Shown: positions 3,271 through 43,632 of the stretch, piece by piece
Position numbering within the stretch: the stretch's first letter is position 1
How the letters are laid out: each line of letters begins with the position of its first letter
Origin: Thermoplasmata archaeon
GTDB taxonomy: Archaea; Thermoplasmatota; Thermoplasmata; Lutacidiplasmatales; UBA184
DNA length: 43,718 bases
Reading direction: 5' to 3'
Assembly: GCA_021812305.1 (NCBI GenBank)
Contig: JAKAOB010000003.1
Span: 1 to 43,718 of the forward strand
Program-made: the position numbers and the translations under genes
Notes under the pieces: model-generated
The model's database searches: none
The model's input: only the letters and a program-made list of their open reading frames with translations
What the model was told of the DNA's origin: nothing

Positions 3271-4680
3271 ATGAAGCCCCGCTGGATCGTGCTCGGTGCG
3301 GCCTCCCTCGCCCTGTTGCTGGCCGTGCCCATCGGGACCACCACGGCCCGCCTGCCGGTTCCCGTGACCCCCTGGGGCCCGGGGTCGACGCACATCAACC
3401 ACGTCATCACGGTCGTGATGGAGAACCGGGTGTACGACACCTACTTCGGCCAGTACTGCACGGTGCTCGGGCCCTACTGCTCCTCGACCGGGAACGGCAT
3501 CCCGCCCGGGACCTGCGTTCCCAACAGCCCCGGCAACGCGTCCGGCCCGTGCACCGTCCCGTTCGCCTTCAACGCGACCCAGCTGCAGACGAACGACATG
3601 GAGCACGACTGGTTGAGCGGGCGCCTCGCGTGGAACAACGGGTCGATGAACGGGTTCTACAACGCCGAGGCCAGCGGATCCGAACCGTTCGGGCACTACA
3701 ACGGCTCCACCATCCCGATCTACTGGGACATGGCGGAGGAGTACGCGATCAGCGACAACCTCTTCGCCGGGAACCTCTCGTACTCGCTCCCGAACCACTG
3801 GGACCTCATCGGCGGCGGCGCGCCCGCGGTCACGGCCTACTCGTACCTCGGCGGGAGCGGGGACCGCGGGCTCTACCTCAACGAGTCGAACGGCACCGCC
3901 ACCGTAGAGGACCTGCTCAACGGCACGGGGATCTCCTGGAAGTACTACGACTGGAGCCTGTGGCCCTACGGCCGCGCGACGCAGAACCTCAACGTCGTCG
4001 GGAACGGGTCGGCGTACAATTACTGGAACCCGATGGCCGCGCGCGCCGAGTCCTACTCGTCCTGGTACGACGCGCACTTCGTCCCGCGCAACGACTTCTT
4101 CTCGGACGCCCGGGACGGAACCCTCCCCGCGATCTCCTGGGTGATCCCGTCCTTCGACGCCTCCGACCACGCGCCGGCCAACGTGTCGGCCGGCGAGGCC
4201 TGGGTCGCGTCGGTCGTCAATGCCGTGGAGGCCTCGCCCGACTGGTCCTCCACCGCGATCTTCATCGTGTGGGACGACTACGGCGGATGGTACGACCATG
4301 TCGCGCCGCCCCGACTGTACGGCAACCTGCTGTCGTTCCGATCCCCGGCGATCGTCATCGGCCCCTACGCCAAGGAGAACTACATCAGCCACACGTTCCT
4401 CGACTTCTTCTCGCTGCTCCACTTCGTCGAGTGGCGCTTCCATCTCGGCTGCCTGACGGCCCTCGACTGCACGGCACCGCTTCCGTTCGACTTCTTCAAC
4501 TTCAACCAGACGGCCCGCGCTCCGTGGTACTTCCCGGTGGACTGGACCCAAGCGACCTATCCGGAGCCATTGCAAGGCGGAGGAAGCCCGCCGCCGACCG
4601 GGCCACCGGGCGAAGGCCCCGTGAACCCGCTTCCGCCGACCCACCTGGTCCGGTACTACCGGCTCATCGATCCGAGCTGA
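3271..4680 (+). CDS. Secreted phosphoesterase (phospholipase C / acid phosphatase AcpA family)
   Basis: Signal peptide, then motifs HVITVVMENRVYDTYFG, SLPNH and IVWDDYGGWYDHVAPP. Confidence 0.9.
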   Translation: MKPRWIVLGAASLALLLAVPIGTTTARLPVPVTPWGPGSTHINHVITVVMENRVYDTYFGQYCTVLGPYCSSTGNGIPPGTCVPNSPGNASGPCTVPFAFNATQLQTNDMEHDWLSGRLAWNNGSMNGFYNAEASGSEPFGHYNGSTIPIYWDMAEEYAISDNLFAGNLSYSLPNHWDLIGGGAPAVTAYSYLGGSGDRGLYLNESNGTATVEDLLNGTGISWKYYDWSLWPYGRATQNLNVVGNGSAYNYWNPMAARAESYSSWYDAHFVPRNDFFSDARDGTLPAISWVIPSFDASDHAPANVSAGEAWVASVVNAVEASPDWSSTAIFIVWDDYGGWYDHVAPPRLYGNLLSFRSPAIVIGPYAKENYISHTFLDFFSLLHFVEWRFHLGCLTALDCTAPLPFDFFNFNQTARAPWYFPVDWTQATYPEPLQGGGSPPPTGPPGEGPVNPLPPTHLVRYYRLIDPS

Positions 4681-29490: not shown

Positions 29491-29758
29491 CGAAGCCCGG
29501 AGGAGAGAAGGAGGGGAAGTTCGGACCCTGTCCCACCCGGTCCGTCCCGACCCGCTCCTCCTGCGGATCGCTGGGTCCGGTGTTCCTCGGGTCGAGAACC
29601 TCTCGTCCTTCCCGATCCGCTACCTTGCGCCCGGATAGATATCCGTGAGGTCAAGCCGGGCGGACGCGGGCCGGCCGGCGGTCCGAGGGCCGACCCGCGG
29701 GCCGTCGAGAGCAGTGGACGGAGGCCCTAAGCACGAGCCGGCCGGTGCGGGAGCGACG

Positions 29759-29983
29759 ATGACCGGAGAATCGATGGCGGCCGGGACGACGATGACCTTC
29801 AAGACCCCGGGAACACCGGAAGGGATGCGCCGGGCGATCCTCCTGTCGATCCTGGGGCCGGTCGCGTGGTTGTGCTTTACCCTGGTCTATGTAGGGTTCT
29901 GGGCGCAGGGGTTCACCCTGTTCCAGAGCATCGTGGTCGTCCTGACCTCCCTGGTCGCCCTGGCGGGCGTCATGGGGGGGTAG
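29759..29983 (+). pseudogene. Small 2-TM membrane protein gene, apparently 3'-truncated by the element insertion
   Basis: The second TM helix runs straight into G7-TAG (...LAGVMGG*) with no polar tail, exactly where base composition changes. Confidence 0.55.
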
Positions 29984-30020
29984 TACCATAGGGGGTCGAA
30001 ATGACACCCCCCACCCCTCT
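29977..30020 (+). repeat. Candidate left terminal inverted repeat of the casposon
   Basis: GGGGTAGTACCATAGGGGGTCGAAATGACACCCCCCACCCCTCT starts with GGGG and contains an imperfect palindrome (GGGGGTC-GAAAT-GACACCCCC). No partner copy was found in the window. Confidence 0.55.
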
Positions 30021-30127: not shown

Positions 30128-33100
30128 CTATGACGGCTCTGGGTCCCAAGCGGTCACGCCGTGAACGCCAAAAGCTAGGGTGAAACGCACTGGGTCGCCA
30201 CGATGCAATGGAACGCTACCTGGCCGTCTCGGATTGAAGAACAAATCCAGCCCGAGATTCGGAACGTTGTGCGGATAAACGGATCCGACGCTTTCGTAGG
30301 TCACTTCCTTAACCCGGCCGGTGAAAATCTTTCGATGGCCGCCCTCCCGGATGAAGTAAAGATATGGGCGTGAAATCAACTTCGGCGTCCCCCTTCGAAT
30401 CTCGCCGAGCAACCGCCTGACCTCCGCGCCTCTTTCTGCGCCGACCAACGCTGTTGCTCGCTGCACCAAGTCAAGCCAACTAAGTTGCCACCGCTTCGGA
30501 TGCTCGGAGCAGGCTCGGCCGATCATATCGGAAAGGATCACCGCCTTAGGGTACGAAGGATTGTCCGCTTTGAGTTCGGTTTCCAGGCTCGCGCGAAAAG
30601 CCGGCACGCACGGACTCTTGGCGCCTACTGCCGCTTCGAGATAGCGCCGGGCGTCTGCTATTCTATTCGACTGCTCCGCTCGCTGATACAATAGGAAATA
30701 CCCAAAACCTGTACCCTGAGACTTGAGCAGACTCTCAGCAAGGGCGTCGTCCAGTTCCCCGGCGTCGTCGGCGAGGCGTGCCATCTGGTCAGTCAGGAAT
30801 GCGTCAGTATTGCCGGACGCCTCCCATCCCTCCTGCAGCACGCCCAGCGCTTCTCCAAGCAACGAAATGCGCTTGGGTCCCTCCGTTCTGCCTGCCAAGT
30901 CACGCAGCACTCGCGCTTCAACGCCGTACGAGTGGGAATTCCATCTGGTCCCCGTCCTCGACTCGCGCAGGAGCTCCCTGATACGAAGGACCTCGGAGGA
31001 CTGTTCGAGACCGGGCAACTCCTTGCCCTCATAGCTCTTCCAAAGAGCGTCGGCGCGAGTCGTCTGAATGATCTCCAGCCGTTCAGTAGGGGGCTCCTCC
31101 ATCCGGGCGAGAGAGATCGCATCGTCCAGCGTCGCCAGCGCAGCGGCGTACTGTCTATCGTCCAGCAGCCTGATTCCCTGATGATGCCGGAGCAGCGAAG
31201 TCATTCCACGCGATTCTAAGCGTTGGAAAAGGTTGAGAATCGTCTGACGATCTGCGATTGTGTCGACTGGGGTCTCCCGCTCCTGCCGGCCAGGTCGGCC
31301 GACAAGAAGGTCGGCCACAAACTGGTGTTCCGCTCCGCTATCCAAATTGACCGCCCCCAGGATAGTCTCCAGCGCAGAGAGGATGGTTGGTCCTCCGCCC
31401 AGCTCCTGTGAAACAAGCTCGCCGAATCTGGAATGGAAAAACGAGACCGTAGGAGTGGGCGGGACCTCATCAACCGTCAAGATTTGGGCACACTCATCTA
31501 TGCGCGTGAACAGCTCTCCGTAGTCACATCTGAGTGCCTTTGCGAGGACTGGGAGCGGGACTGGAGTCCTTCCGAGGGTCGAGAGGAGGGCTAGTCTGAC
31601 TACTGCTTGCGCACCTGCGCTGAGGTTCAAGACCGACTGCCGTGCGATATCTTGGAAACTCTTCCGAGATTCGTCGACCAGTCGGTACATCAACTCGATG
31701 AACGTCCGGTCAGCGCTCACCTGTGATTCGAGTTCCGCGCGCGACCAACGGAAGGGTCGAACTGTTGGATCAAGCTGGTCGACATAGTCCGTGAACGGGC
31801 CAATTTCGTTCGCCTCAATCGAGTCCGGGACCCGAATCTGACAGACTTCGATTCCGAACTCTCGAACGCGATCCGGATCAATCGGCTCATACGCAACCGA
31901 AATCACTAGAACATCCGCAAAACCCCGCCACTGAAGAGAATTGATGAGGCTTCGAGCATTTTCGCCCCGGACCTGATCATCTAACAAGACAGTCAAAAAG
32001 GTCCGCCGATCTTCGCTCGTTGAACGAGCCAACTTACCGAACGCCACAACTGAGTCCTCATCAGGGGTGGCTGCACGCTGTCCGAGTCGAAGCCCGACGG
32101 ATGGAAACTCTCGAACTGCCGAGAATAGTGCCGCGTTGGCAGCGACTGTTTTCCCCGAGCCGGGCCGGCCGTAGAGGTGAATCAGAGCTGGTGGGCGAGG
32201 ATCTAGTGAAACCCACTTTGTAACGAAGGCTCGCTCTTGGCGTATGAGTTCGCGGTTCCACTCGAGTCGGTTCGAGTAAGGGCCTAGCTCGGACGTTCTT
32301 CCTCTGAAGAAATCCTTCGGGGGACACTTCCGTTCGAGCTCCAGCTGGGTGACTGGGTCAAACTGTCGGAGAAGGTCGGTCACCCGAGCCGCGTCTATGG
32401 AAAGGGTTCGGTCTCCAAAGGCGAGAACAAGTTGGGTCTTCTCAACGGTCCTGTCCACTTCCTCAGACAGTCGCCGAGCAAATTCGGCTGCGGGTTCGAC
32501 GATTGGTTCGATTCCTAGGATCCCGAATCGCCGCTTCCTTTCGTCGTTGGGATCGGATCGAAAAAGAGCGCGAATGGGAATCCTAGACCTCGAGGCGAGC
32601 CCTCTGATGACCTCAGCGGACTTTTCGAGGATTCCATCGTCGAAACTGTATCCGATTGCGAGAACCCCAGTGGCACGGACGAACTCGTCCAAGTGCTCGA
32701 ACATCAAATGGTTCTCGCGCTCCTTTCTGGCGATGTCCGCGCTACTGAGCGCCATCTGACCGCCTGAGTCAATTGGCGCCGTTCGGCAGCCCATAATCTT
32801 GAAGATCGGAACCGTTCCGGGGGTGACGAACATCACCCTGCGTGCATCCACGTAGACGATTGGCTTGACCATTCTCCCGTCGCGATAGTGGTCCTCGATC
32901 GCTGTGTCGAAATTAGTCGTGTAGACGGCCGACCAGGGCAGATCCAAGATCGAGCCGAGTTCAGCGCTCGCTCTGACGTTCGCGAGACGCTTTGCTACGG
33001 AAGCATACACCTCGGACCTTCGGCCGAGGCGAATGCAAATGTCATCCAAAGTATTGCGTGGGCTTTCTTGGGCCGGGACTCCCATTTCATTGGCGACCCA

Positions 33101-33214
33101 AGCCGCCAAATCTCCCCATGATGCTCCGCCGGAGTCGGCGGTCATGCCCGCTCCTACAAACAGAACGCCGCCGCCGTTGCGGATGTCCTGCGCGAGAGTA
33201 TCAATCAACCCCAA
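30128..33214 (-). CDS. SIR2-like domain + STAND P-loop NTPase + TPR-like + C-terminal OB/cold-shock-like domain (Avs-like defense protein)
   Basis: VLFVGAG, YTTNFD and IGYSFDD (SIR2); Walker A LYGRPGSGKT; Walker B VLLDD; helical repeats; C-terminal FTGRVK...GDPVRFTLAF. Confidence 0.85.
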   Translation of the reverse strand: MGLIDTLAQDIRNGGGVLFVGAGMTADSGGASWGDLAAWVANEMGVPAQESPRNTLDDICIRLGRRSEVYASVAKRLANVRASAELGSILDLPWSAVYTTNFDTAIEDHYRDGRMVKPIVYVDARRVMFVTPGTVPIFKIMGCRTAPIDSGGQMALSSADIARKERENHLMFEHLDEFVRATGVLAIGYSFDDGILEKSAEVIRGLASRSRIPIRALFRSDPNDERKRRFGILGIEPIVEPAAEFARRLSEEVDRTVEKTQLVLAFGDRTLSIDAARVTDLLRQFDPVTQLELERKCPPKDFFRGRTSELGPYSNRLEWNRELIRQERAFVTKWVSLDPRPPALIHLYGRPGSGKTVAANAALFSAVREFPSVGLRLGQRAATPDEDSVVAFGKLARSTSEDRRTFLTVLLDDQVRGENARSLINSLQWRGFADVLVISVAYEPIDPDRVREFGIEVCQIRVPDSIEANEIGPFTDYVDQLDPTVRPFRWSRAELESQVSADRTFIELMYRLVDESRKSFQDIARQSVLNLSAGAQAVVRLALLSTLGRTPVPLPVLAKALRCDYGELFTRIDECAQILTVDEVPPTPTVSFFHSRFGELVSQELGGGPTILSALETILGAVNLDSGAEHQFVADLLVGRPGRQERETPVDTIADRQTILNLFQRLESRGMTSLLRHHQGIRLLDDRQYAAALATLDDAISLARMEEPPTERLEIIQTTRADALWKSYEGKELPGLEQSSEVLRIRELLRESRTGTRWNSHSYGVEARVLRDLAGRTEGPKRISLLGEALGVLQEGWEASGNTDAFLTDQMARLADDAGELDDALAESLLKSQGTGFGYFLLYQRAEQSNRIADARRYLEAAVGAKSPCVPAFRASLETELKADNPSYPKAVILSDMIGRACSEHPKRWQLSWLDLVQRATALVGAERGAEVRRLLGEIRRGTPKLISRPYLYFIREGGHRKIFTGRVKEVTYESVGSVYPHNVPNLGLDLFFNPRRPGSVPLHRGDPVRFTLAFGVHGVTAWDPEPS

Positions 33215-33342: not shown

Positions 33343-36021
33343 CTAGCTGTGGGCGGCTCCGTTCAAGATATGGGCGACCCGCTCGAGCAGCCCTCCCCGG
33401 TACCCCCTCACGACCTCCCCCTTCCTCAGCCTCTTCCTGAGCCTCGCGAAGTTCCTCTTGTCAATCCCATGCTCAGTGGCCCAAGAGAGAGGCAGGGCGA
33501 GGATTCGTTCGGCCCAAGGAACGTAGACCTTCGCCCGTGCTCCGGTCGGACCGACGCCCAGAACCCGGGCTGTCTCGATTCGGTTCGCCTCCTTGCCGAT
33601 CCCGTGGGTCCGGGACCTTCGGACCAGGACGTTCCGCCGAACCATCCGGCCCCCCGCGTCGCGCCCGCATTTCCGGTCCTCGTGCTCCGCGAAAGCCTCG
33701 ACCACTGAGCTCCAGTCTCTCTGACCAGGTAGTCCCATGAGCGCATCCCGGCCTACGGTGTCCTCCTTGGAGAGGTAGGGGACGAGCTCGGATCTCCACC
33801 CATCAACGGCCGCAGACGGCTCGATGTAGCGAGCCGTCATGAACGAGAATGGCCGGATCGACCCGAGGCGTTTCACCCGTGGCAAGAGCATCGGGGTCGA
33901 CAGGGAGAACTGCGCCGTGGCCGGAATCCCGACGAACCGCTTACCCGCACTCGGCCCCTCCTCAATGATCGCCTCCCAGACGTGCGCGATGAACTCCTTC
34001 CGCTCCCCGGCTACCTCGAAGGATCCTAGGCCGTGGTCAGACGCGGATTTCCGAAAGACGTGGGGCCGGCCGTGACGGTCTCGGACGAAGAGGCAGTAGC
34101 GTTTACAGGAGAGGCCATAGAACGATGGGGCGACGGCCGGAGAACCCGCCGGATACTGTTCTCGCGGGGCCTTCTCGCCAGTCTCGTCCTTCAAGAAGTG
34201 GGTCGGGATGGCGTAGGGATTGAGCGAGTCAAAGACCCGAGTGACCTCCGGAGCGATTCGGGAAGGCGTGACGAAGACCGAGTCGGTGTCTTCGTAAACG
34301 ACCTCGCCGCCGTTCGACTGGACAACCACTTCTGCCAAAGCAAGCAGCAGATGCGAGGCGGAGGTGAGGGTCGCCCCGAGGAGCGGGCAGTAGAAGTCGC
34401 CGACCTCCTCCGTCTCAGAGTCCTCCCACTCGAACGGGTCGTCGGTGAGGCCGTGAATCGTTGAGGTGCCGGCCCCTCGCTTCCGGTTCACTTCAACCGA
34501 GATCCCGTAGGCCAGCGCGTTGGAGAGGATCTTCAGCCCTTGGGCGCGAGACTCCCATCCCAGCGTTTTCGTCGCCTTCTCCCGGATGCGCTCCTCGGAG
34601 AGCTTCCGGACCATGTCCTCCTCGGACCCGATGTCGACGCCGAGCAGCCGGATCGGGCGAACTGCCTGCCGGCGGACGGGCTCGAACGTGGTCGCCCGGA
34701 CGATGCGCGGGACCCGGCCCGATTGCAGCTTTGCGGCGATGAGGTCCGGAACCAGGTAACGAAGTGTCGTCCCGGGCTCCGAGGTGACATGATTCCAGCC
34801 GATGGTCGGGGGCTGCGAGGGGTCTCCGTTGTAGGTCGAACGGACTGGGAGAATCTCGCCCCGGGCCTCGACTTCGCAGAGGGTCCACATCCGGAGGTCC
34901 AGCCACGTCTCGCGACGGAGCAGGTCCGCGACTGTCAGGGAGTCCAGCCACGACCGGACCTCCCCAGTGGAATCGCGGGTCCGGAGGCGCTTGCCGGTCA
35001 GGAACTGGTCGGCGGCCAGCAGGCAGTAGAGCGATGGGAACTCGGAGGTGAAATCGAGGACGGCTACGTCAGGGACCTCGCGTCCGGCGACCCGGCACTC
35101 GACCTTACCCGCGTAGAACGCGGACATGACCCACCCGGTCCAGTCCGCCGAAAGCTGGGGTGGCACGATGCCCCGGGCGCGAAGAGCCGCCTTCGCGAGG
35201 GAAGCTGGGGAGAAGAGGCGCGTCGGGTGCTCCTCGACGCCGAAGGCCCGATACCGGGCGACGCACTTCTCGTAGAGCTCGTAGGTGAGAGCCACATCAT
35301 TGAGCGCGTAGTCGAGATACCGGGCGTCGACAGGGCCGTGGTAGTCGGTCCTGGTTTTCTTCCGCGCGCATCCGAACGCAGTCCCCGCGGACTCGAGCGA
35401 GTGCCTCTCGCCCGTCAGCACATGAACGAAGGTCCGCAGGTCCAGGAAGGCTCCTCGATAGCGGCGCCAGCGGTTCTTGGTCCCGGCGAAGGCGATGAAC
35501 GACTTTGTCGAGTCGACGCGTTGGACCCGGATGTTCGGAATGTGCCCGGACTCGGGGTCGGACCGTTGGACGAGTCGGAGCGTGAAGTGCTCCTTAGTCC
35601 CGATCCTCTCCCTGGGGGCCCAGTCGACGGCCAGCCGCGCGAGGTCGAAGGGCAGGTTGAACCCGACGACGATGGCCTGCATCTCGAGCGCCAGGGGGAC
35701 GAAGAGCTTCCGGACGAAGCGGTCGAGCGTGAGCACGTCCGCGTCGTGCGCCTTCGCCCACGCGGCAACCGACCGGGCCTCGGCCTCCGTCAGCCTTCCG
35801 GTGAAGACGATGGTCCGGCAGAGGTGTCCGAGGGCGTACTCGCGGGCGATCCCGAAGCGGAGCTCCTGCTGGAGATCCGTCGTCGTTTCGGTGTCGAGGA
35901 TGAGAACCAGATCGGCGTTGGGGGTCTCCGGTTCGGGGCGCACTCGCTTCGAGGATTGCTTGGGCTTGGAGTGGACCCGAACGTAGACCGGCGGCTCTTC
36001 GAGCGTTGCGGCTGCGTTCAT
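33343..36021 (-). CDS. polB: Family B DNA polymerase of casposon type (892 aa)
   Basis: Exo I LDTET, Exo II GFNLPFD, Exo III YALND; Pol motif A DFTSEFPS, B KILSNALAYG, C YEDTDS, plus KRY. ATG 36021 overlaps the HNH stop (ATGA). Confidence 0.93.
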   Translation of the reverse strand: MNAAATLEEPPVYVRVHSKPKQSSKRVRPEPETPNADLVLILDTETTTDLQQELRFGIAREYALGHLCRTIVFTGRLTEAEARSVAAWAKAHDADVLTLDRFVRKLFVPLALEMQAIVVGFNLPFDLARLAVDWAPRERIGTKEHFTLRLVQRSDPESGHIPNIRVQRVDSTKSFIAFAGTKNRWRRYRGAFLDLRTFVHVLTGERHSLESAGTAFGCARKKTRTDYHGPVDARYLDYALNDVALTYELYEKCVARYRAFGVEEHPTRLFSPASLAKAALRARGIVPPQLSADWTGWVMSAFYAGKVECRVAGREVPDVAVLDFTSEFPSLYCLLAADQFLTGKRLRTRDSTGEVRSWLDSLTVADLLRRETWLDLRMWTLCEVEARGEILPVRSTYNGDPSQPPTIGWNHVTSEPGTTLRYLVPDLIAAKLQSGRVPRIVRATTFEPVRRQAVRPIRLLGVDIGSEEDMVRKLSEERIREKATKTLGWESRAQGLKILSNALAYGISVEVNRKRGAGTSTIHGLTDDPFEWEDSETEEVGDFYCPLLGATLTSASHLLLALAEVVVQSNGGEVVYEDTDSVFVTPSRIAPEVTRVFDSLNPYAIPTHFLKDETGEKAPREQYPAGSPAVAPSFYGLSCKRYCLFVRDRHGRPHVFRKSASDHGLGSFEVAGERKEFIAHVWEAIIEEGPSAGKRFVGIPATAQFSLSTPMLLPRVKRLGSIRPFSFMTARYIEPSAAVDGWRSELVPYLSKEDTVGRDALMGLPGQRDWSSVVEAFAEHEDRKCGRDAGGRMVRRNVLVRRSRTHGIGKEANRIETARVLGVGPTGARAKVYVPWAERILALPLSWATEHGIDKRNFARLRKRLRKGEVVRGYRGGLLERVAHILNGAAHS

Positions 36022-36452
36022 GCGGTCGCCTTGGCTGCTTCGGCGTACTGCGCTCGGAGCCGTTTTCCGGTCTCGTGGAAGGCGTAACCCTCGAACCGAG
36101 CCCGTTCTTCGCAGAGGTCGCTCAGCCCTCGAAGCACGAAGGTCGCCTTCAGTTCGGGCGGGTTGTTCTCCCGCTCCCAGCGTGGGTCCCAGCCATTCTG
36201 CCGTTCCGATAGCCGATTGTGACAACGCTCGCAGACAGGGACCGTGACCTCCGAGTTGAACTTCCCCGCGATGTGGTGGGCCTGAGTATCGACTCGCGAG
36301 TCGCAGACCGCGCAGCCGTTTGCCCCCTGGGCCCCCGACTTCACCCACTCGACCCACGCCGAAACAGTTCCGATCTGGCGAGGGACCCTGGCCCGGACGC
36401 CTTCGATAGCCCGGCCGAGGTTGGCAGTGGGATCGGGGACCGAGTCGCTCAT
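36018..36452 (-). CDS. HNH endonuclease-like Zn-binding protein (144 aa)
   Basis: CAVC...QAHHIAGKFNSEVTVPVCERCH. ATGA overlaps at both ends. Confidence 0.85.
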   Translation of the reverse strand: MSDSVPDPTANLGRAIEGVRARVPRQIGTVSAWVEWVKSGAQGANGCAVCDSRVDTQAHHIAGKFNSEVTVPVCERCHNRLSERQNGWDPRWERENNPPELKATFVLRGLSDLCEERARFEGYAFHETGKRLRAQYAEAAKATA

Positions 36453-37144
36453 CCGATTTCGTCGGCCTCCTCGGGCTCCGCGTAGAGGTCGCCGAACGCT
36501 CCGAAGTCCGCCTCGGATCGTTCGAGGGCCGCGCGCAACTTCCTGGGGTCGGTTTCGAAGGTGTGGAACTTGCCGGCGACGTCGACGTACGTCCGTCCTT
36601 CGAACTCCTTGAGTCGGCTCGCGTCGCCGGTTTCGAAGTAATGGCGAACGGCGTTCGCGTAGCGAGAGAGCAGCGTCGCCGTCTTCGAGTCGCCGACCAG
36701 GAAGGACCGCCGCGCGCCATGCTCGTAGGTCTGAAGGTATCGCTGGATCCGGTCGGAGCGTGTCGCTACCCAACGGCTTCCGCGCTTCTGGAAGGCCCCG
36801 CTGGCCCTCCGAACGGTCTTGGGCGAGATCCCGGCCTTTCGGGCGAGCTTGGAGAGGGAACCCTCGCCCCGGCGCACCCGAGAGACGACTTCCAAAGCCC
36901 GTTCACGATGAGCCCGTTCGCGTGGGGTAAGCTGGGTAAAGGGAAGACGGAACGCCGGAGCCCGAGGAACAGCCGATAGCGGCCGCTGTTCAGTCCGGGG
37001 GTGCCTTCGGAGCTGACTGAGGGTCGCGGTCGGATACCGGGCGTGGGTTCGGGCGATCCTGGCGGCGTAGGGGGTTCGTTGCGGCTGCCCGGCAGCCCAT
37101 TGCTCGTAGGACGCGTACTTCCGCGAGAAACGGCGGGGAGGCAT
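36449..37144 (-). CDS. Basic HTH-containing casposon protein
   Basis: HTH-like GEGSLSKLARKAGISPKTVRR; translationally coupled to the HNH gene. Confidence 0.75.
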   Translation of the reverse strand: MPPRRFSRKYASYEQWAAGQPQRTPYAARIARTHARYPTATLSQLRRHPRTEQRPLSAVPRAPAFRLPFTQLTPRERAHRERALEVVSRVRRGEGSLSKLARKAGISPKTVRRASGAFQKRGSRWVATRSDRIQRYLQTYEHGARRSFLVGDSKTATLLSRYANAVRHYFETGDASRLKEFEGRTYVDVAGKFHTFETDPRKLRAALERSEADFGAFGDLYAEPEEADEIG

Positions 37145-37145
37145 T

Positions 37146-37400
37146 CTACGCCCCCTCGGCGGGATTGTTCACGGGGTCCGGGGAGTTTCCCACGCCCCCC
37201 CGGGCCCTTTTCGCGGCCCAAGCCGCCCTCCGACATGTCTCGGCCTTCAGGCCGAGCCGCTGAGCGATCTCGGGCCAGGCGGCCCCGGAAGCTCGGAGCG
37301 AAGTGATCTCGCGTAGTTTCTCAGCCGTCACCTTTCGGGGGCGACCCGCTACGGTCCGCACCCTCTCGGGGGGTTCGGCCCCGCTCGCCACGTCGACCAT
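37146..37400 (-). CDS. Small HTH DNA-binding protein (resolvase/Hin-type HTH)
   Basis: GRPRKVT...LRASGAAWPEIAQRLGLKAETCRR. First gene of the polB operon. Confidence 0.8.
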   Translation of the reverse strand: MVDVASGAEPPERVRTVAGRPRKVTAEKLREITSLRASGAAWPEIAQRLGLKAETCRRAAWAAKRARGGVGNSPDPVNNPAEGA

Positions 37401-37463
37401 TGCCCTCGGTAGGTCTATGTTTCTTCACAGTGCATAAGTAGTATAGTGACGCTACGTGAAATT

Positions 37464-38225
37464 ATGCCCCGACATAGCTGGTCACCCGAGGAACTGGAGG
37501 ATCGCTTCGTTCCCTGTCTCAAGGACAAGGGCCGGGGCCTGACCTACGGGAAGACGGTCGCAGCCTACGCGGAGCGATGGCGGCCGTGCTCCGATAGGAC
37601 AGCCAAGGCTCACCTCGCGATCCTGGTCCGCGGGATCGGACAAGGGACCGTCAAGGAGATTGGCCGATACCGCGGCCCCGAGGGGTTCCTCTACGGGCTG
37701 CTCAACGAGAAATCGTTCGCAGACGCGAAGGAGGCCGCGGAGATACCGCCGGACTCTACCCCGAAACCTGCCTCTATCGTCCACCTCGGCGGTCCGTATC
37801 ACGATACGCCGATGCGTCTGGAATGGACGAACTGCCCCGTTACGGCGAAGATCGTCCGAACCCAAGTCTGGACCCTCGGGCTTGCCGATTTCATGTCGTG
37901 CCCCATCTGCAACTGGTTCCACTTCCTCGGGGTCAGCCCCAAGATGAAGGACCAACGCGTCTATGCATGGCAGATGGACCCCTTGGTGAATGCCGAGGAA
38001 TACGCGGACTCGCTATCGAGGCTGTTCCGGGGTGACCCTAAGACCTTCCGGCCCCAACCCTCGCGGATCCCTCGGATGCTCGGAGGCGGCCACTACGTCG
38101 GTCTGATGTTCCGCACCTCGTGGGACTACGATCCGATGGAACGCCTCCGAGAGCTGGGGGCCAGAGAGGTGAAGGGGGACCGGCGCAGGAAGGCCAAGGT
38201 ACGGAATTCGCGGTCGAAGGCCTAA
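37464..38225 (+). CDS. Hypothetical protein with putative winged HTH and a Cys/His cluster
   Basis: Helical N-terminus (SDRTAKAHLAIL) and NCPVT...SCPICNWFH. Divergent from the polB operon, with an AT-rich box at ~37434-37445. GTG 37446 is an alternative start. Confidence 0.6.
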   Translation: MPRHSWSPEELEDRFVPCLKDKGRGLTYGKTVAAYAERWRPCSDRTAKAHLAILVRGIGQGTVKEIGRYRGPEGFLYGLLNEKSFADAKEAAEIPPDSTPKPASIVHLGGPYHDTPMRLEWTNCPVTAKIVRTQVWTLGLADFMSCPICNWFHFLGVSPKMKDQRVYAWQMDPLVNAEEYADSLSRLFRGDPKTFRPQPSRIPRMLGGGHYVGLMFRTSWDYDPMERLRELGAREVKGDRRRKAKVRNSRSKA

Positions 38226-38460
38226 CGCCCGCACTCACCCGCGCCCGCCCCCCGCTCGCACGCGACGCACACGCACGCAGTACACGCACGCGTAGTGGTA
38301 CGCGCAGGGACAGCTACAGGCGAATTCGGTGGGGGCGGAGTCACATAAACATGTACGTAGGAAGTGGCCAGCCCAATCTCGCCGTCTGATATATTAATAT
38401 ATATAGGACGACGAGCGGACCGCGCTCCCTATCATAGGATAAGGCAAGACTGCCCCCGAA

Positions 38461-39657
38461 CTATACTATATGGGCGATACGATTCCGTATCTTACCATAT
38501 AGGCGGACCGGCTTCCCCACTGCCGCCCTCCTCTTCATGTCCCATAACCCCGCCTTCGAGATCCCGAGCTTTCGGGCTTCGGCATAGGACATTGCCGCGA
38601 CCCTCTCGGCGATGCCGGTCTCGACGTGGCCGGATTCCCCGGTATGGAACGGAACCGTATGGTGGAGCCTTCCGTTTGGTTTGGTGAGGTACCGGGCAAG
38701 ACCACGGGCAGCCTCGGTAACGAGGGACTCGTAGGAGTAGTTCCGGCCCCCGACCGCCACCTTGCGATTCATGTTGGCCGAGAGGCGGTCGATGAGCGCC
38801 CTAGCGGCGGCCGGCCGGAGTCGGACATGGTAATTCTCGGTCACGATGAAGTCCCGCTTCCGGTCGAGCTTCTTGTCCCGGAGGACTTCGAGGACCGAGA
38901 GGTCTACGAGCCAGCGGAACGGCTCTTGGAGATCGTAGACCAAGGGCAACTTCGCTGGGGATGTCTCATGAAGAAAGCCGATCTCCGGAAGCAAGCCGAC
39001 GGAAACCAAAGAGGATCGGCAAAGGGATTCGAGAAGGGAATAACCGTAGTTGAGCAGGGCATTGGTCGGGTCAGCCGCGGAGTTGTTCCAGGAGCGCTGA
39101 GGGGATCGCCGGGAGACAAAGCCCGCCGCGGGCCATAGGAATTCAACGGCCTTTGTGTACTCCTTCCACCACGCCTGGGCGACTCGGGCCTCGTAGACCC
39201 GAAGATCGTTGAGGGAGCGGCCCTGGTCGGAGCCACCCTCCTTCCGGATGGGGTCCGGTTCGACCGGGAGGGTCCGGCTCAGGTGCTCGGCAAGGGAGAC
39301 GGTCTTCGAGACCTTCTCCCGGATGAACTCGCGGGCGATCCCGAGACGGCTGGCGGGGTTCGAGTAGGCTTGGACCTGAGCGACCCTGAGCTCCCCGTTC
39401 GAGGGCCCCCGGGGCAGGATCGTGGAGAGGACCGTCCCGTTCCAGCGGAGGAGGGTTACGGGCACGTCATGGATCGCGAGGAACCGGAGCGCCTCGAAAC
39501 TGACCGACCCCGCCAGGGAGTCGACGACGACCGAGTCGAAAGGGAGCTGCTGAGGGCGGTAGGACTCCTTTCGACCCTCGGAACGCCAGTCGACTTCGAG
39601 TGTGCGGCCGTTGACTCGTAGGGACGTGCCGAAGCCGTGGAGGAGGAGGGGGCGCAT
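38461..39657 (-). CDS. cas1: Casposase (solo Cas1 integrase) with C-terminal HTH-like domain
   Basis: Motifs YEARVA (Glu), DPTNALLNYGY, GFLHE (His) and LVYDLQEPFRWLVD (acidic ligand). Extra C-terminal tail; no cas2 alongside. Confidence 0.95.
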   Translation of the reverse strand: MRPLLLHGFGTSLRVNGRTLEVDWRSEGRKESYRPQQLPFDSVVVDSLAGSVSFEALRFLAIHDVPVTLLRWNGTVLSTILPRGPSNGELRVAQVQAYSNPASRLGIAREFIREKVSKTVSLAEHLSRTLPVEPDPIRKEGGSDQGRSLNDLRVYEARVAQAWWKEYTKAVEFLWPAAGFVSRRSPQRSWNNSAADPTNALLNYGYSLLESLCRSSLVSVGLLPEIGFLHETSPAKLPLVYDLQEPFRWLVDLSVLEVLRDKKLDRKRDFIVTENYHVRLRPAAARALIDRLSANMNRKVAVGGRNYSYESLVTEAARGLARYLTKPNGRLHHTVPFHTGESGHVETGIAERVAAMSYAEARKLGISKAGLWDMKRRAAVGKPVRLYGKIRNRIAHIV

Positions 39658-39712: not shown

Positions 39713-39874
39713 GTGCCTCGCACGACTTACTCGGTCACCGGGTGGGAGTGCTTGCGGTGCGGGCACAAGTGGGTTCCAAGAATCTCGCGTGAGCCGAAGC
39801 GGTGCCCGGGGTGCAAGAGCCCTTACTGGAATCGCACCCGAACGCATCCGTCGCGGCCCGTCCGTCCGGTATGA
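39713..39874 (+). CDS. Small Zn-ribbon protein (53 aa)
   Basis: MPRTTYSVTGWECLRCGHKWVPRISREPKRCPGCKSPYWNRTRTHPSRPVRPV*. Two CxxC motifs; its TGA overlaps the cas4 ATG (ATGA). Absent from the ORF track. Confidence 0.8.
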   Translation: MPRTTYSVTGWECLRCGHKWVPRISREPKRCPGCKSPYWNRTRTHPSRPVRPV

Positions 39875-40887
39875 CAAACAGCAAGGGATTGCGGCGGAAG
39901 AGTCTCCGTCGCTTTCGTTCAACGAAGTTCGCTAAGGTCGGGGCGAAGGGTCCGACTCCCCGGGTTGGCCGCTTGATCAAGGCGCCAGAACCATCGAATC
40001 CACCGCCAGACTTGCCACTTGGCTCGGACGGGGTCAGCCCGACCGATCTACGCCTCGTTGAGCTCTGCCCATTACAACTCTGGCATGCAGCGCGATGGCC
40101 GTCGGAGACGGCTGCCCCTTCACTGGGCCTGGCGATTGGACAAATCGTGCATGCCGCCAGAGAGGCGATCTCGATGGAGCAGCGAGGAATCTACCTCCAA
40201 GCAGAATCTGAATCCAAGTTATGGAATGAAGACGTTGAGGCGCGGCTGAGAGCGCTGATTGAGTCTACCTTCGAGCGCCACTACTACCTCCATGTCTTCG
40301 GCGACCCGGCCGCTCGGGCAAGGTCAGAATGGACCGGCCGCCTCCTTGGCATGGAACGGGGGAGGGCCGATAGGGCTCGTGACGCTTGGAATCTTGGGCT
40401 GAGGGGCGTCGACCTCGCGAACGCCTGCACACCAGAGCGAACCGAAGCAGAATGGTTCGACTCGGGCCTGAGGATGCACGGATTCTGCGATGAGCTCTGG
40501 CGGGACGGCACGAAGTCCCGGCCTGTCGAGCTAAAGACGAGCCCACCGAATGATGCGAATCGGTCAGCAAACCGGTACCAGGTCGCGGCGTATGCATACT
40601 TGGCTCAGAACGTAGAAGGACTGGTGGTGAGTACGTGCGAAGTGCAATATCTTCGCGAGGGCTCCTCCGACAGATTCAGGTTCGGGCCCGCCTGGGAAGG
40701 TAAAGTGCGTCGGCAAGCCCATCGAGTGATGCTGGTGCGTCACTCGCTGGATCCGCCGACCGGTGCCCCGTCGCCACAAACATGTGGGTGGTGCCCGTTC
40801 CAGCAAGTATGCCCCCAGTCCGCCGCACCGTCGGTTGATGATGCTTTCGCTAGCCTCAAGGTTTTCGACGACTTCGGGGGCCGTTGA
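39871..40887 (+). CDS. cas4: Cas4-like PD-(D/E)xK nuclease with a four-Cys Fe-S cluster
   Basis: SPTDL...LCP, GQIVH, HGFCDEL...VELKT, YQVAAYA and C-terminal CGWCPFQQVC. Confidence 0.88.
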   Translation: MTNSKGLRRKSLRRFRSTKFAKVGAKGPTPRVGRLIKAPEPSNPPPDLPLGSDGVSPTDLRLVELCPLQLWHAARWPSETAAPSLGLAIGQIVHAAREAISMEQRGIYLQAESESKLWNEDVEARLRALIESTFERHYYLHVFGDPAARARSEWTGRLLGMERGRADRARDAWNLGLRGVDLANACTPERTEAEWFDSGLRMHGFCDELWRDGTKSRPVELKTSPPNDANRSANRYQVAAYAYLAQNVEGLVVSTCEVQYLREGSSDRFRFGPAWEGKVRRQAHRVMLVRHSLDPPTGAPSPQTCGWCPFQQVCPQSAAPSVDDAFASLKVFDDFGGR

Positions 40888-43157
40888 TTAATGTGACCGC
40901 GAGCGACTGCCGGCAGCAGGCAAGGCGCGTTGCAGAAAGTGTCTGGCGCGCGCTCCATCGGTCTCGGCCCTTGAGTTCAGAAGATGTGCAGCGGAAGGTT
41001 CGGGAAATCGGACTGCTCGAGTCGTCGAGGCTTGGCGAGCCAGATCATGACGCGCTAGCCCAGTTCTGCGAGTGGCTTTCATCGAGGATCATTCAGGAGG
41101 CGGGACCAGCAGGCAAGTATCGACAGCTCGACGTACACCGAGGAGTCGTGAGACTCTTCGGGCAATCCCCTTCCTTCTCCGATCCTGAGTTCGACATAGT
41201 TTCGAACATCGGAAAACAGACTTCGGTGTGGCGGTTCGACTCGGTCGGTAGCAGGCGCGACCTCCATGTCCTGACTCCTGGGACGCTCGAGCGCGTTTCC
41301 AGAGGCACCGAGGGACCTGTCTCGATCACGCAGGTAGTCCTTGGCAACCGGACGCAAGCGCTGCAGGTCGAGTCATTTGTGGCTGCACCCGAGAGGCATG
41401 AATCGCGAGGTGCAAGCGAGCAGGTGAAGGAGGACGCCAGAGATATCCCAGCCAAAGCTTCCGAGAGAAGAAGTCCTCCTGATGACGGCTCGAGGGAAGG
41501 CTCGACTCTCGACTCTGCTGCGAAGTCCCCAGCGGGCGGGGGTAACCGAATCGAAGCTTCACGAGGAAGCGCGAGACAAGTGGACTCAACTCACACCCCT
41601 ACCGAGGACGGGGTGATCGGCGCCATCGGGCCGTCACCGCCGACAATGAGCCGTGCCGGCGGGTATGTTGTAAACGGCATCCTCTATGTGCCCGAGATAC
41701 CGAACATTGCGGTCACGAAAGGGCTCCCGGTTATCGCAGAGTCACATAGCGACCCGTCTAACCCGAAATCTCCGCTCATTCGGGTGTTCGCCCGAATCGG
41801 GCAGACCACGGTCGAAACCTCAAGCACGATTGAGCGAGCTCCAACGAGCACGACGTACGTTGATAGTACGTTCGAGATCTTGCGCGAGGCATACCCTGCG
41901 TCCGAACAGGGCGCCGAGATTCGCCCTTGGACCCCGAAGGCAATGGGAGGTTACCGTCTGCGGTGGCCGCGTACTCAAGACCTTTCCCTGATGGGCTTCC
42001 CCGACTCTGGCGTCTGCCTCGGCTGGCAGGAGGGGGTACCCACAAGGCTCCAGTATTGGTTCCCGGTGGAGGCAATCTACAGATCGCTGTTCGTTGTCGG
42101 AGGAATGGGCGGAGGAAAGACCAACTTCATTTCGTGCCTCGCCCGCGCGATCGCAAACCGAGATCCGGCCGCCTTCCCTCATAGCCTTCGGCCGGCGGTT
42201 GTAATCCTCGATGCTGAGGGCAGAAAGGAGTACGCAGACCTAGCGACCGAAGTCCGGCCCGAGCTTCGCCGCTCCCTCGAGGAGCTCGGAATCGCCCCTC
42301 ACGGCGTGAGGGATTTCAGATACCACTCGATAGGGACGAAGGCTCGAAGCTTCCGGTTTGCAGACATTCCGCCTCAGGATACCGTGGTGTTCCCCGCCAC
42401 GCTTCCGACAAAGTCGGAGAGGGCGTGGATTCAGGGTGCTGAACTCTTCTGGAGGCATGCCCAAGCTGCCCAAAGATCGGTGACGGCGGCCCAGGCGACC
42501 GCTGCCATCGCTGGAGTGAACCTGCCGCTCGGAATCAACACTGCGATGAGAGCAGCAATTGTACGCGCTGCGTCGGATAGCTGCTGGGATGTGTTTGATC
42601 TTCCCGAGACCGAGCCCCTAACTGTGGACGAGCTCCTACAGCCGGGCCGGGTGTCTGTCGTCGATGTGTCCAACCTCCTGGGCGGGGACAGAATCCGCGC
42701 CGCGGGCCTCGCTCTCCTGACACTCTTTGACGTGGCGAAACGCCGGCAGCCGCAGCACCCGTGCCCGATCATCTTGATCGTAGACGAGGCGACGCGCTTG
42801 GTCCCCGCTGGATTTAGCGGCGCGAGCGCCAAGGACTATACCGACAAGATGGGAAAGTGGCTGACAGAGATTCTTCATCGTGGGCGACGCGCGAGCTACG
42901 GTCTCGTCTTGGCAACTCAATACCCCGACGACGTGTTGAGGGGCCTGGCCGACCAGCCCCAGACCAAAGTGGCCTTCGCGCTGGCCCCTCGCTACGACCG
43001 GTGGGTCGACACGAACTTCTCAGACGGTGCGGGTGAACGGCTCCGGGAGCTGGCTTCTCCTGGAGTCGGATACGTGGCCCGCACCGCACGCGTGGAGGGC
43101 GATCCCCAAGGCGTCCCACATCCGGCCACCGTGATTCACTTCCCACAGGTACGGTAG
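40884..43157 (+). CDS. HerA/FtsK-superfamily ATPase (DUF87-like) with a long N-terminal extension
   Basis: Walker A VGGMGGGKT, VILDAEG..EY, Walker B LIVDEA, GRR arginine finger and LATQYP. Start overlaps the cas4 stop. Confidence 0.88.
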   Translation: MINVTASDCRQQARRVAESVWRALHRSRPLSSEDVQRKVREIGLLESSRLGEPDHDALAQFCEWLSSRIIQEAGPAGKYRQLDVHRGVVRLFGQSPSFSDPEFDIVSNIGKQTSVWRFDSVGSRRDLHVLTPGTLERVSRGTEGPVSITQVVLGNRTQALQVESFVAAPERHESRGASEQVKEDARDIPAKASERRSPPDDGSREGSTLDSAAKSPAGGGNRIEASRGSARQVDSTHTPTEDGVIGAIGPSPPTMSRAGGYVVNGILYVPEIPNIAVTKGLPVIAESHSDPSNPKSPLIRVFARIGQTTVETSSTIERAPTSTTYVDSTFEILREAYPASEQGAEIRPWTPKAMGGYRLRWPRTQDLSLMGFPDSGVCLGWQEGVPTRLQYWFPVEAIYRSLFVVGGMGGGKTNFISCLARAIANRDPAAFPHSLRPAVVILDAEGRKEYADLATEVRPELRRSLEELGIAPHGVRDFRYHSIGTKARSFRFADIPPQDTVVFPATLPTKSERAWIQGAELFWRHAQAAQRSVTAAQATAAIAGVNLPLGINTAMRAAIVRAASDSCWDVFDLPETEPLTVDELLQPGRVSVVDVSNLLGGDRIRAAGLALLTLFDVAKRRQPQHPCPIILIVDEATRLVPAGFSGASAKDYTDKMGKWLTEILHRGRRASYGLVLATQYPDDVLRGLADQPQTKVAFALAPRYDRWVDTNFSDGAGERLRELASPGVGYVARTARVEGDPQGVPHPATVIHFPQVR

Positions 43158-43158
43158 A

Positions 43159-43632
43159 ATGCTGGTAACAGAGGACTCACAAGACAGGGTAATGGTCTTC
43201 ATCGATCTTGCAAATGTCCAGCGCTCGGTTCGATCCAAGGAGTCTAGTGGTTTCCGGCTGGATTACTACAGACTAGTGAAGGAGCTCGTCGGCCCACGGC
43301 GGCTAATCGGTGCGTACGTCTTCGATGCAGTCTCCTCGGCAGATCGAACATCTATAGAGCCCAAGAAACGCCTTCACGACGCCCTTCGGTACCTTGGATT
43401 CCGCGTAGTCGCAAGAGAAGTTGCCTTCGAAGAGGAGGGCCAGCAAAAGGAGGTGGATGTCGCCCTCGCCACCGAGATGCTCGTGGCCGCCCTCAGAAAT
43501 GCGTTCGACGTCGCGATTCTTGTTTCCGGAGATCGCGACTTCGTCCCGGCGGTAGAGCGGCTGAGGACAGAGGGAAAGCGCGTCGAGGTTGCCTTCTTTG
43601 GCGGATCGGTTGAAAACGAGGTACGTGTTTAG
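43159..43632 (+). CDS. NYN (LabA/DUF88, PIN-fold) ribonuclease, possibly C-terminally truncated
   Basis: Motifs VFIDLANV, QKEVDVAL, LVSGDRDF and GKRVEV. Starts 1 nt after the HerA stop. Confidence 0.88.
   Translation: MLVTEDSQDRVMVFIDLANVQRSVRSKESSGFRLDYYRLVKELVGPRRLIGAYVFDAVSSADRTSIEPKKRLHDALRYLGFRVVAREVAFEEEGQQKEVDVALATEMLVAALRNAFDVAILVSGDRDFVPAVERLRTEGKRVEVAFFGGSVENEVRV

Follow-up and report, generated by a model that had tools for sequence, protein, structure and literature searches.

Casposons have been proposed as the ancestors of the CRISPR adaptation machinery. In their second family, the integrase (casposase), a Cas1 homologue, and the DNA polymerase end alike: Krupovic et al. 2014 (PMC4046053) report a conserved C-terminal helix-turn-helix (HTH) domain in all family 2 Cas1 proteins and a similar HTH at the end of the casposon family B DNA polymerase (PolB), and a 2023 review (PMC9939771) restates the presence of the domain at both ends. 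Statements attributed to these and the other cited papers refer to excerpts of their texts. The stretch analysed here (the window) is the 43,718-nucleotide (nt) contig JAKAOB010000003.1 of the Thermoplasmata archaeon assembly GCA_021812305.1, one whole contig of a high-GC metagenome-assembled genome (MAG) of 1.87 Mb that is 79.7% complete. From position 29976 to the contig end, this window is, by its sequence, a family 2 casposon of a Thermoplasmata-like archaeon and an ordinary member of the family. The tail shared by its Cas1 and PolB, which the first-pass annotation of this DNA had taken as a fresh observation, is an already known feature, a family 2-specific HTH domain in print since 2014 (PMC4046053).

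Experimental information on the domain comes from the M. mazei casposase. According to the excerpted text of Hickman et al. 2020 (PMC6977970), truncation of this enzyme at residue 341 abolishes integration, the crystal of the DNA-bound tetramer shows a disordered HTH, and the authors suggest that the domain may recognise a sequence lying upstream of the target. Hickman and Dyda 2014 (PMC4150552) raise the question of what the recurrent HTH domains recognise, the ends or the target, and cooperation between polymerase and integrase in casposons is posed as a question both there and in PMC6977970. A literature search whose reach stopped at subscription papers found no experiments on the PolB tail. 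Hints of a link between the casposon polymerase and the integrase are few, and the shared tail is among them.

That Cas1 and PolB of the window end in homologous domains of about 50 amino acids (aa) each is as good as certain. The same HTH-like module, as first annotated, is recovered by BLASTP, by hhalign, by shared predicted helices and by matches to the tail of the M. mazei casposase (6OPM). In a BLASTP comparison of whole Cas1 with whole PolB, the tail pair is the best match, with 21/61 identities, one gap, 31.2 bits and E 1e-4. The hand alignment reported earlier, with 18 identities in 51 columns, is this BLASTP alignment minus its first ten columns, and the peptides quoted with it are the true C-termini of both proteins: 38464-38613 encodes IAERV...AHIV followed by the stop, and 33346-33516 encodes WAERIL...AHILNGAAHS followed by the stop.

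Profile comparisons strengthen this result considerably. Tail profiles built from database homologues, covering 113 of the 120 Cas1 and 101 of the 120 PolB proteins among the matches listed, align in hhalign with 97.8% probability (E 9e-13, 38 columns). Profiles built from the window and 21 genomic loci (22 tails of each kind) reach 98.8% (E 5e-17, 52 columns), making the hhalign comparison suggested in the first-pass annotation clearly significant. When all six-frame open reading frames (ORFs) of the 1.87-Mb genome were scanned with a hidden Markov model (HMM) of the PolB tail, the only matches were PolB itself, Cas1 (E 4.7e-7) and, on contig C133, a broken PolB remnant; beyond these, no match was better than E 0.021. 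Against all PDB sequences, the PolB-tail profile has a sole match below E 0.01, the C-terminal HTH region of 6OPM (residues 365-411, E 6.3e-4), while the Cas1-tail profile matches residues 354-412 of the same protein at E 2e-17. As negative controls, the element's two other HTH proteins were compared with the Cas1-tail profile by hhalign; the 84-aa protein scores a probability of 0.2% and the 231-aa protein 1.1%, ruling out a third copy of the domain in them.

Chance resemblance, or convergence of two unrelated generic HTH motifs, is very improbable in the light of these comparisons and is excluded for practical purposes. Turns of the form hydrophobic-G-I/L-S/T do recur in unrelated HTH proteins, and the window pair taken alone reaches only E 1e-4; opposed to this are the 52-column hhalign result, the casposase tail as the only PDB match of the PolB-tail profile below the threshold, and the near-zero scores of the two control HTH proteins.

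At the DNA level, the motif R[IV]AHI[LV] closes the last helix in both window proteins (33361-33378 and 38464-38481) over an identical 10-nt run, TCGCCCATAT. Gene conversion between the two tails was considered and rejected, as DNA identity is confined to this run, with little elsewhere. The last six residues of Cas1 (RIAHIV) are unlike those of its 80%-identical homologues, and homologues at about 80% identity lack the R[IV]AHI[LV] ending; the shared ending is read as chance.

Structure prediction, the other check suggested at first annotation, gives the same picture. AlphaFold2 models of the two tails, with mean predicted local distance difference test (pLDDT) values of 72.0 and 70.7 and core blocks at 85-89, have four predicted helices in common, in register with the sequence alignment. 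These helices span residues 15-23, 26-31, 36-48 and 56-64 in the Cas1 model (a 66-aa piece) and 20-27, 30-35, 40-52 and 63-76 in the PolB model (a 77-aa piece). The turn between helices 2 and 3 reads LGIS or HGID, both proteins have a strongly basic helix 3, and each model adds a fourth, C-terminal helix to the three-helix core. Small HTH proteins are numerous in the fold lists returned by VIA, and several entries recur for both tails. At E <=0.01, HTH_Tnp_1 and HTH_23 each match 3/22 PolB tails, and the PolB tail of homologue P0168 lies above the HTH_23 cut-off (25.2 versus 24.6 bits, E 1.3e-5). The HTH label is kept because of the helix pattern, this P0168 match and the literature.

A search for the domain in other architectures compared a 38-tail profile, from which L003, L045 and L061 were omitted, with 1.84 billion representatives and yielded 944 matches at E <=0.001, of which 281 lie at <=1e-10. 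Among the best 150 of the 944, 29 carry a Cas1 core, 9 a PolB core and 112 neither; 103 of these 112 are shorter than 150 aa. Most of the 60 matches inspected have a Cas1-type or PolB-type linker and therefore look like C-terminal fragments. No clearly different architecture for the tail domain was seen among the best 150 of the 944 matches.

Among related casposons, the paired tails are widespread. A survey of 98 confirmed relatives, with 80 loci kept, covers Thermoplasmata, Methanomassiliicoccales, Methanosarcinales, Methanocellaceae, Bathyarchaeia, Nitrososphaeria and Micr-, Nano- and Aenigmatarchaeota. The Cas1-tail HMM (E <1e-3) matches 67 of the 76 complete Cas1 C-termini, the other 9 matching neither tail HMM, and the PolB-tail HMM (E <1e-2) also matches 58 of the Cas1 ORFs. 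Complete PolB C-termini match a tail HMM in 22/25 cases and the Cas1-tail HMM in 11. The first-pass annotation had asked for a survey of PolB/Cas1 pairs, and among the 24 loci complete at both ends the two tails indeed occur together in 20, with the Cas1 tail only in 3 and the PolB tail only in 1. In two of the three PolB proteins scored as lacking the tail (L027 and L065), the motif is visible by eye.

The Cas1 tail can also persist without PolB. Nine loci (L009, L028, L029, L031, L034, L046, L050, L054 and L056) encode a full-length tailed Cas1 with at least 8 kb of sequence on each side and no family 2 PolB there; eight of the nine come from Bathyarchaeia or Bathyarchaeota MAGs. Two of them, L046 and L050, contain an ordinary Pfam DNA_pol_B gene whose product has no tail. 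The neighbours in L009 are aminotransferase, molybdopterin oxidoreductase and PAS-kinase genes, apparently of the host.

The two tails have separate histories and differ in constraint. Of the 44 tails, 43 have a tail of their own kind (Cas1 or PolB) as nearest neighbour. Mean BLOSUM62 scores per column are 2.28 for Cas1 tails compared with one another, 1.00 for PolB tails and 1.10 for comparisons across kinds. A majority residue at >=50% is found in 31/48 columns for Cas1 and 12/48 for PolB, with the same residue in seven columns, including the G and I of the HTH turn and two helix 3 lysines. The Cas1 tail is thus strongly and the PolB tail weakly conserved.

A single old duplication would leave cognate tails no closer to each other than to foreign ones, unless both were tracking a common changing target. 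This expectation was examined in the window and 21 loci, leaving out L032 and L051 (one tail missing) and L065 (weak PolB tail). Identity between cognate Cas1 and PolB tails is 0.279, versus 0.260 in shuffled pairings (p 0.04; BLOSUM p 0.14). The excess vanishes when shuffling is kept inside GC classes (identity p 0.82, BLOSUM p 0.88), and co-evolution of cognate tails was rejected on this result.

These measurements bear on the idea, raised at first annotation, that both tails recognise the same specific DNA, whether the terminal inverted repeat (TIR), a subterminal site or a target-adjacent leader, so that polymerase and integrase would be co-recruited and self-synthesis coupled to integration. 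We regard this as somewhat unlikely. A homologous domain does end both enzymes in 20 of the 24 complete loci, the seven common majority residues include those of the turn and of helix 3, and M. mazei integration needs the Cas1 tail, for which upstream-of-target reading has been suggested (PMC6977970). TIR starts are also alike among related elements, and an unchanging shared site would therefore leave no covariation. Set against these points are the absence of cognate covariation within GC classes, the poor conservation of PolB tails where Cas1 tails are strongly conserved, the retention of the Cas1 tail in nine loci without a tail-bearing PolB, and, in the excerpt of PMC6977970, the lack of detectable DNA interaction by the isolated M. 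mazei HTH. Same-site recruitment, most plausible if the site is identical in every element, gains no support from the indirect tests of covariation, constraint and PolB-less loci.

The same M. mazei observation can be turned towards proteins. If the tails were protein-protein adaptors for a common partner, such as a casposon HTH protein or a host factor, or for each other, with DNA binding secondary, then an isolated domain without detectable DNA binding, and one disordered in a DNA-bound tetramer yet essential (PMC6977970), would fit, as would the helix 4 added to the three-helix core in both models. We judge this quite unlikely: helix 3 is basic in both proteins, as expected of a nucleic-acid contact surface, the low conservation of PolB tails is ill-suited to a specific protein interface, and no partner has been identified. 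Prediction of a complex of the Cas1 tail with the PolB tail gave no answer (score 0.00, mark 0.32), which is evidence neither for nor against direct binding.

The preferred reading, which falls slightly short of an even chance in our estimate, is that the tails are context-dependent nucleic-acid anchors: the casposase would depend on its copy and keep it constrained, and in the polymerase the copy would be an accessory that drifts. The domain would have been duplicated or transferred once, early on, between the Cas1 and PolB genes, and the two copies would then have evolved separately. Each tail would most likely serve as an auxiliary nucleic-acid anchor, working only within its whole enzyme. 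The Cas1 copy would be tightly constrained and, by analogy with the published M. mazei work, needed for integration, while the loosely constrained PolB copy would probably add general DNA affinity; the two would not be expected to read one element-specific sequence.

Several results weigh against this anchor reading or against the HTH assignment behind it. Foldseek finds nothing in the PDB at E <=0.001 for either tail, and the VIA fold search is weak, its best hits reaching Z 3.9 (root-mean-square deviation, rmsd, 3.1 over 58 residues) and Z 4.2 (rmsd 3.0 over 56 residues). The window's own tails match no Pfam family, so the HTH label is soft, and HTH-family matches at E <=0.01 are found for 0/22 Cas1 tails and few of the 22 PolB tails. 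The failure of the isolated M. mazei HTH to interact detectably with DNA, given as data not shown in the excerpt of PMC6977970, is a further point against it. A family 1 casposase functions without an HTH, and the excerpted text of Béguin et al. 2019 (PMC6614799) states that the role of the domain 'remains to be investigated'. The covariation test is small (22 elements, 48 columns) and blind to a target identical in all elements.

A more novel proposal is that the tails are a physical coupling device, acting through the same end or leader DNA or through one partner protein, by which the copy is handed from polymerase to integrase. We hold this to be unlikely; if it were true, a newly synthesised copy would pass directly from one enzyme to the other. 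Any model must accommodate strong conservation of the Cas1 tail and weak conservation of the PolB tail, no cognate co-evolution, and a Cas1 tail that persists without PolB.

Table 1. Features of the casposon in the window, with coordinates, strand and supporting evidence.
Feature	Coordinates	Strand	Evidence
Very probable left TIR, starts GGGGGTAGTACCATAGG...	29976..30020	+	Alignment with TIR arms of L002 and L007
SIR2-like cargo protein with weak P-loop ATPase-like region, 1028 aa	30128..33214	-	Pfam SIR2_2 E 1.6e-9; PADLOC ThsA-type SIR2 E 6.5e-13
Casposon family B DNA polymerase (PolB), 892 aa	33343..36021	-	Homologues with Pfam DNA_pol_B; motif residues
PolB C-terminal HTH tail (domain ~33364-33516, then 6 residues and stop)	33343..33516	-	BLASTP, hhalign, model, 6OPM tail match
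Probable HNH-type nuclease	36018..36452	-	Pfam DUF968 E 0.0029 (below cut-off); CxxC...HH...CxxCH in translation
Putative HTH protein, 231 aa	36449..37144	-	Pfam HTH_28 E 4.6e-5, 23.8 bits versus cut-off 25
Small putative HTH protein, 84 aa	37146..37400	-	Weak Pfam matches
Casposase (Cas1 homologue), 398 aa	38461..39657	-	Pfam Cas_Cas1; 6OPM match
Cas1 C-terminal HTH tail	38461..38613	-	BLASTP, hhalign, model, 6OPM tail match
Cas4-like PD-(D/E)XK nuclease, cargo/accessory	39802..40887	+	Pfam PDDEXK_1 E 2.3e-12, Cas_Cas4 E 1.6e-5; PADLOC Cas4 E 3.4e-13
HerA-like ATPase, 757 aa	40884..43157	+	PADLOC mad8 E 1.1e-12, HerA E 8e-9; Pfam DUF87 weak
NYN-domain protein; element runs on to contig end	43159..43632	+	Pfam NYN E 1.5e-25

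Assignment to family 2 followed the features in the excerpt of Krupovic et al. 2014 (PMC4046053): a casposase of the Cas1-solo type, both tails, the type of PolB, an HNH gene with two HTH genes, and TIRs with target-site duplications (TSDs). The family 2 identity rests on the Cas1 match to 6OPM, the gene set and the likeness of the TIR to those of relatives (Table 1). Pfam Cas_Cas1 covers residues 6-291 of Cas1 (E 5e-48), and the protein aligns end to end with 6OPM over residues 1-394, tail included (E 3.2e-66). Identical positions in this alignment include the E of vyEar, the H of gflHe, and the D and E of yDlqEpfr, which we take to be the Cas1 catalytic residues. An HNH-like ORF and two putative HTH ORFs occupy the space from PolB to Cas1, along with an unassigned ORF on the opposite strand; the HNH and HTH ORFs are in the places expected for family 2, with every Pfam match there below its family cut-off. 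For the HNH-type nuclease a shorter start was inferred within the listed ORF 36018-36773.

PolB was delimited within the long ORF 33343-36720, its start (MNAAATLEE) being taken from the identical 892-aa database protein P0123. Its 178 homologues are never annotated beyond 'hypothetical', and Pfam DNA_pol_B appears in the distant ones. The window PolB itself has no Pfam match, and its profile has 0 matches at E <=0.01 among PDB sequences. Residues of motifs Exo I-III and Pol A-C, judged by what we take to be their consensus, are invariant in the PolB alignment. Motif C has the form YxDTDS throughout the alignment, reading YEDTDS in the window (residues ~576-581) and YCDTDS in the family majority. 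The excerpt of Kazlauskas et al. 2020 (PMC7544198) names the PolB_CDTDS group after the YCDTDS hallmark. The window protein is a casposon-type PolB of the PolB_CDTDS group, presumably not protein-primed, with a C-terminal tail homologous to that of Cas1.

The borders of the element are partly visible. GC content drops from ~0.72 to 0.57-0.66 near ~30000 and stays low up to the contig end, with 0.60 in the last 718 bases versus 0.72 for the genome. The casposon is at least 13.7 kb long and is cut by the contig end. The site 29977-30020, named in the first-pass annotation, is very probably the left TIR: the left-end sequence (GGGGGTAGTACCATAGG) can be aligned to each of the two TIR arms in the related casposons L002 and L007, whose arms are complementary at 95% in L002 (with Cas1 and PolB enclosed) and 90% in L007. 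The left-TIR motif has 1 copy in the window and 1 in the genome. An inverted-repeat search, a motif search of the window and whole assembly, and blastn with the left end as query all failed to find a right TIR, as the element extends past the contig end; with the right arm beyond the contig, the TSD is therefore not readable. As to a tRNA target, the window contains 0 tRNA genes. On the host side, the ORF 29645-29983 (112 aa, with a hydrophobic C-terminal half) has its TAG stop inside the first TIR bases (29976 onward), and the casposon may therefore have inserted at the 3' end of a protein-coding gene, now providing its stop codon.

Several other features of the element and its host were noted. 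The cargo at 30128-33214 and 39802-43632 looks defence-like: its SIR2 protein is of ThsA type and may include an ATPase part, and it is accompanied by genes for a Cas4-like nuclease, a HerA-like ATPase and an NYN protein. ORF 37446-38225 and Cas1 converge on a 235-bp gap (38226-38460). A stretch rich in ACGC/ACGCAC lies in this gap, together with a palindromic run, TATATTAATATATATA (38390-38405), that is AT-rich within an element otherwise rich in GC; blastn and motif searches show no resemblance of the gap to the TIR. Elsewhere in the host genome, C133:15023-15936 (minus strand) encodes a second, broken PolB C-terminus with an HTH tail (PolB-tail HMM E 3e-17), suggesting that a second casposon has decayed there. 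A tailed remnant of a PolB C-terminus also lies at L002:3940-4287, immediately beyond the left TIR (4344-4382) of an intact casposon, in an arrangement that looks like a tandem insertion. Tandem casposon insertion has been published for Methanosarcina.

The closest named homologues of both Cas1 and PolB come from MAGs of Thermoplasmata and Candidatus Lutacidiplasmatales. Compared with the M. mazei casposase 6OPM, the window Cas1 is alike over residues 1-394 including the tail; the two differ in that the window host is a high-GC Thermoplasmata-like MAG. Compared with transposase-type HTH domains (HTH_23, HTH_Tnp_1 and HTH_28), some homologue PolB tails match whereas the window tails do not, and Pfam has no model covering the family 2 tail domain as such. 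The window PolB, like the family 2 PolB described in the excerpt of PMC4046053, ends in an HTH similar to that of its own Cas1. The window thus offers no new kind of feature; what it provides is a clean and intact case of a known one, in a Thermoplasmata lineage that is uncultured and high in GC. Beyond what the excerpted text of PMC4046053 contains, the 80-locus counts, the unequal conservation of the two tails and the covariation test come from the present analysis.

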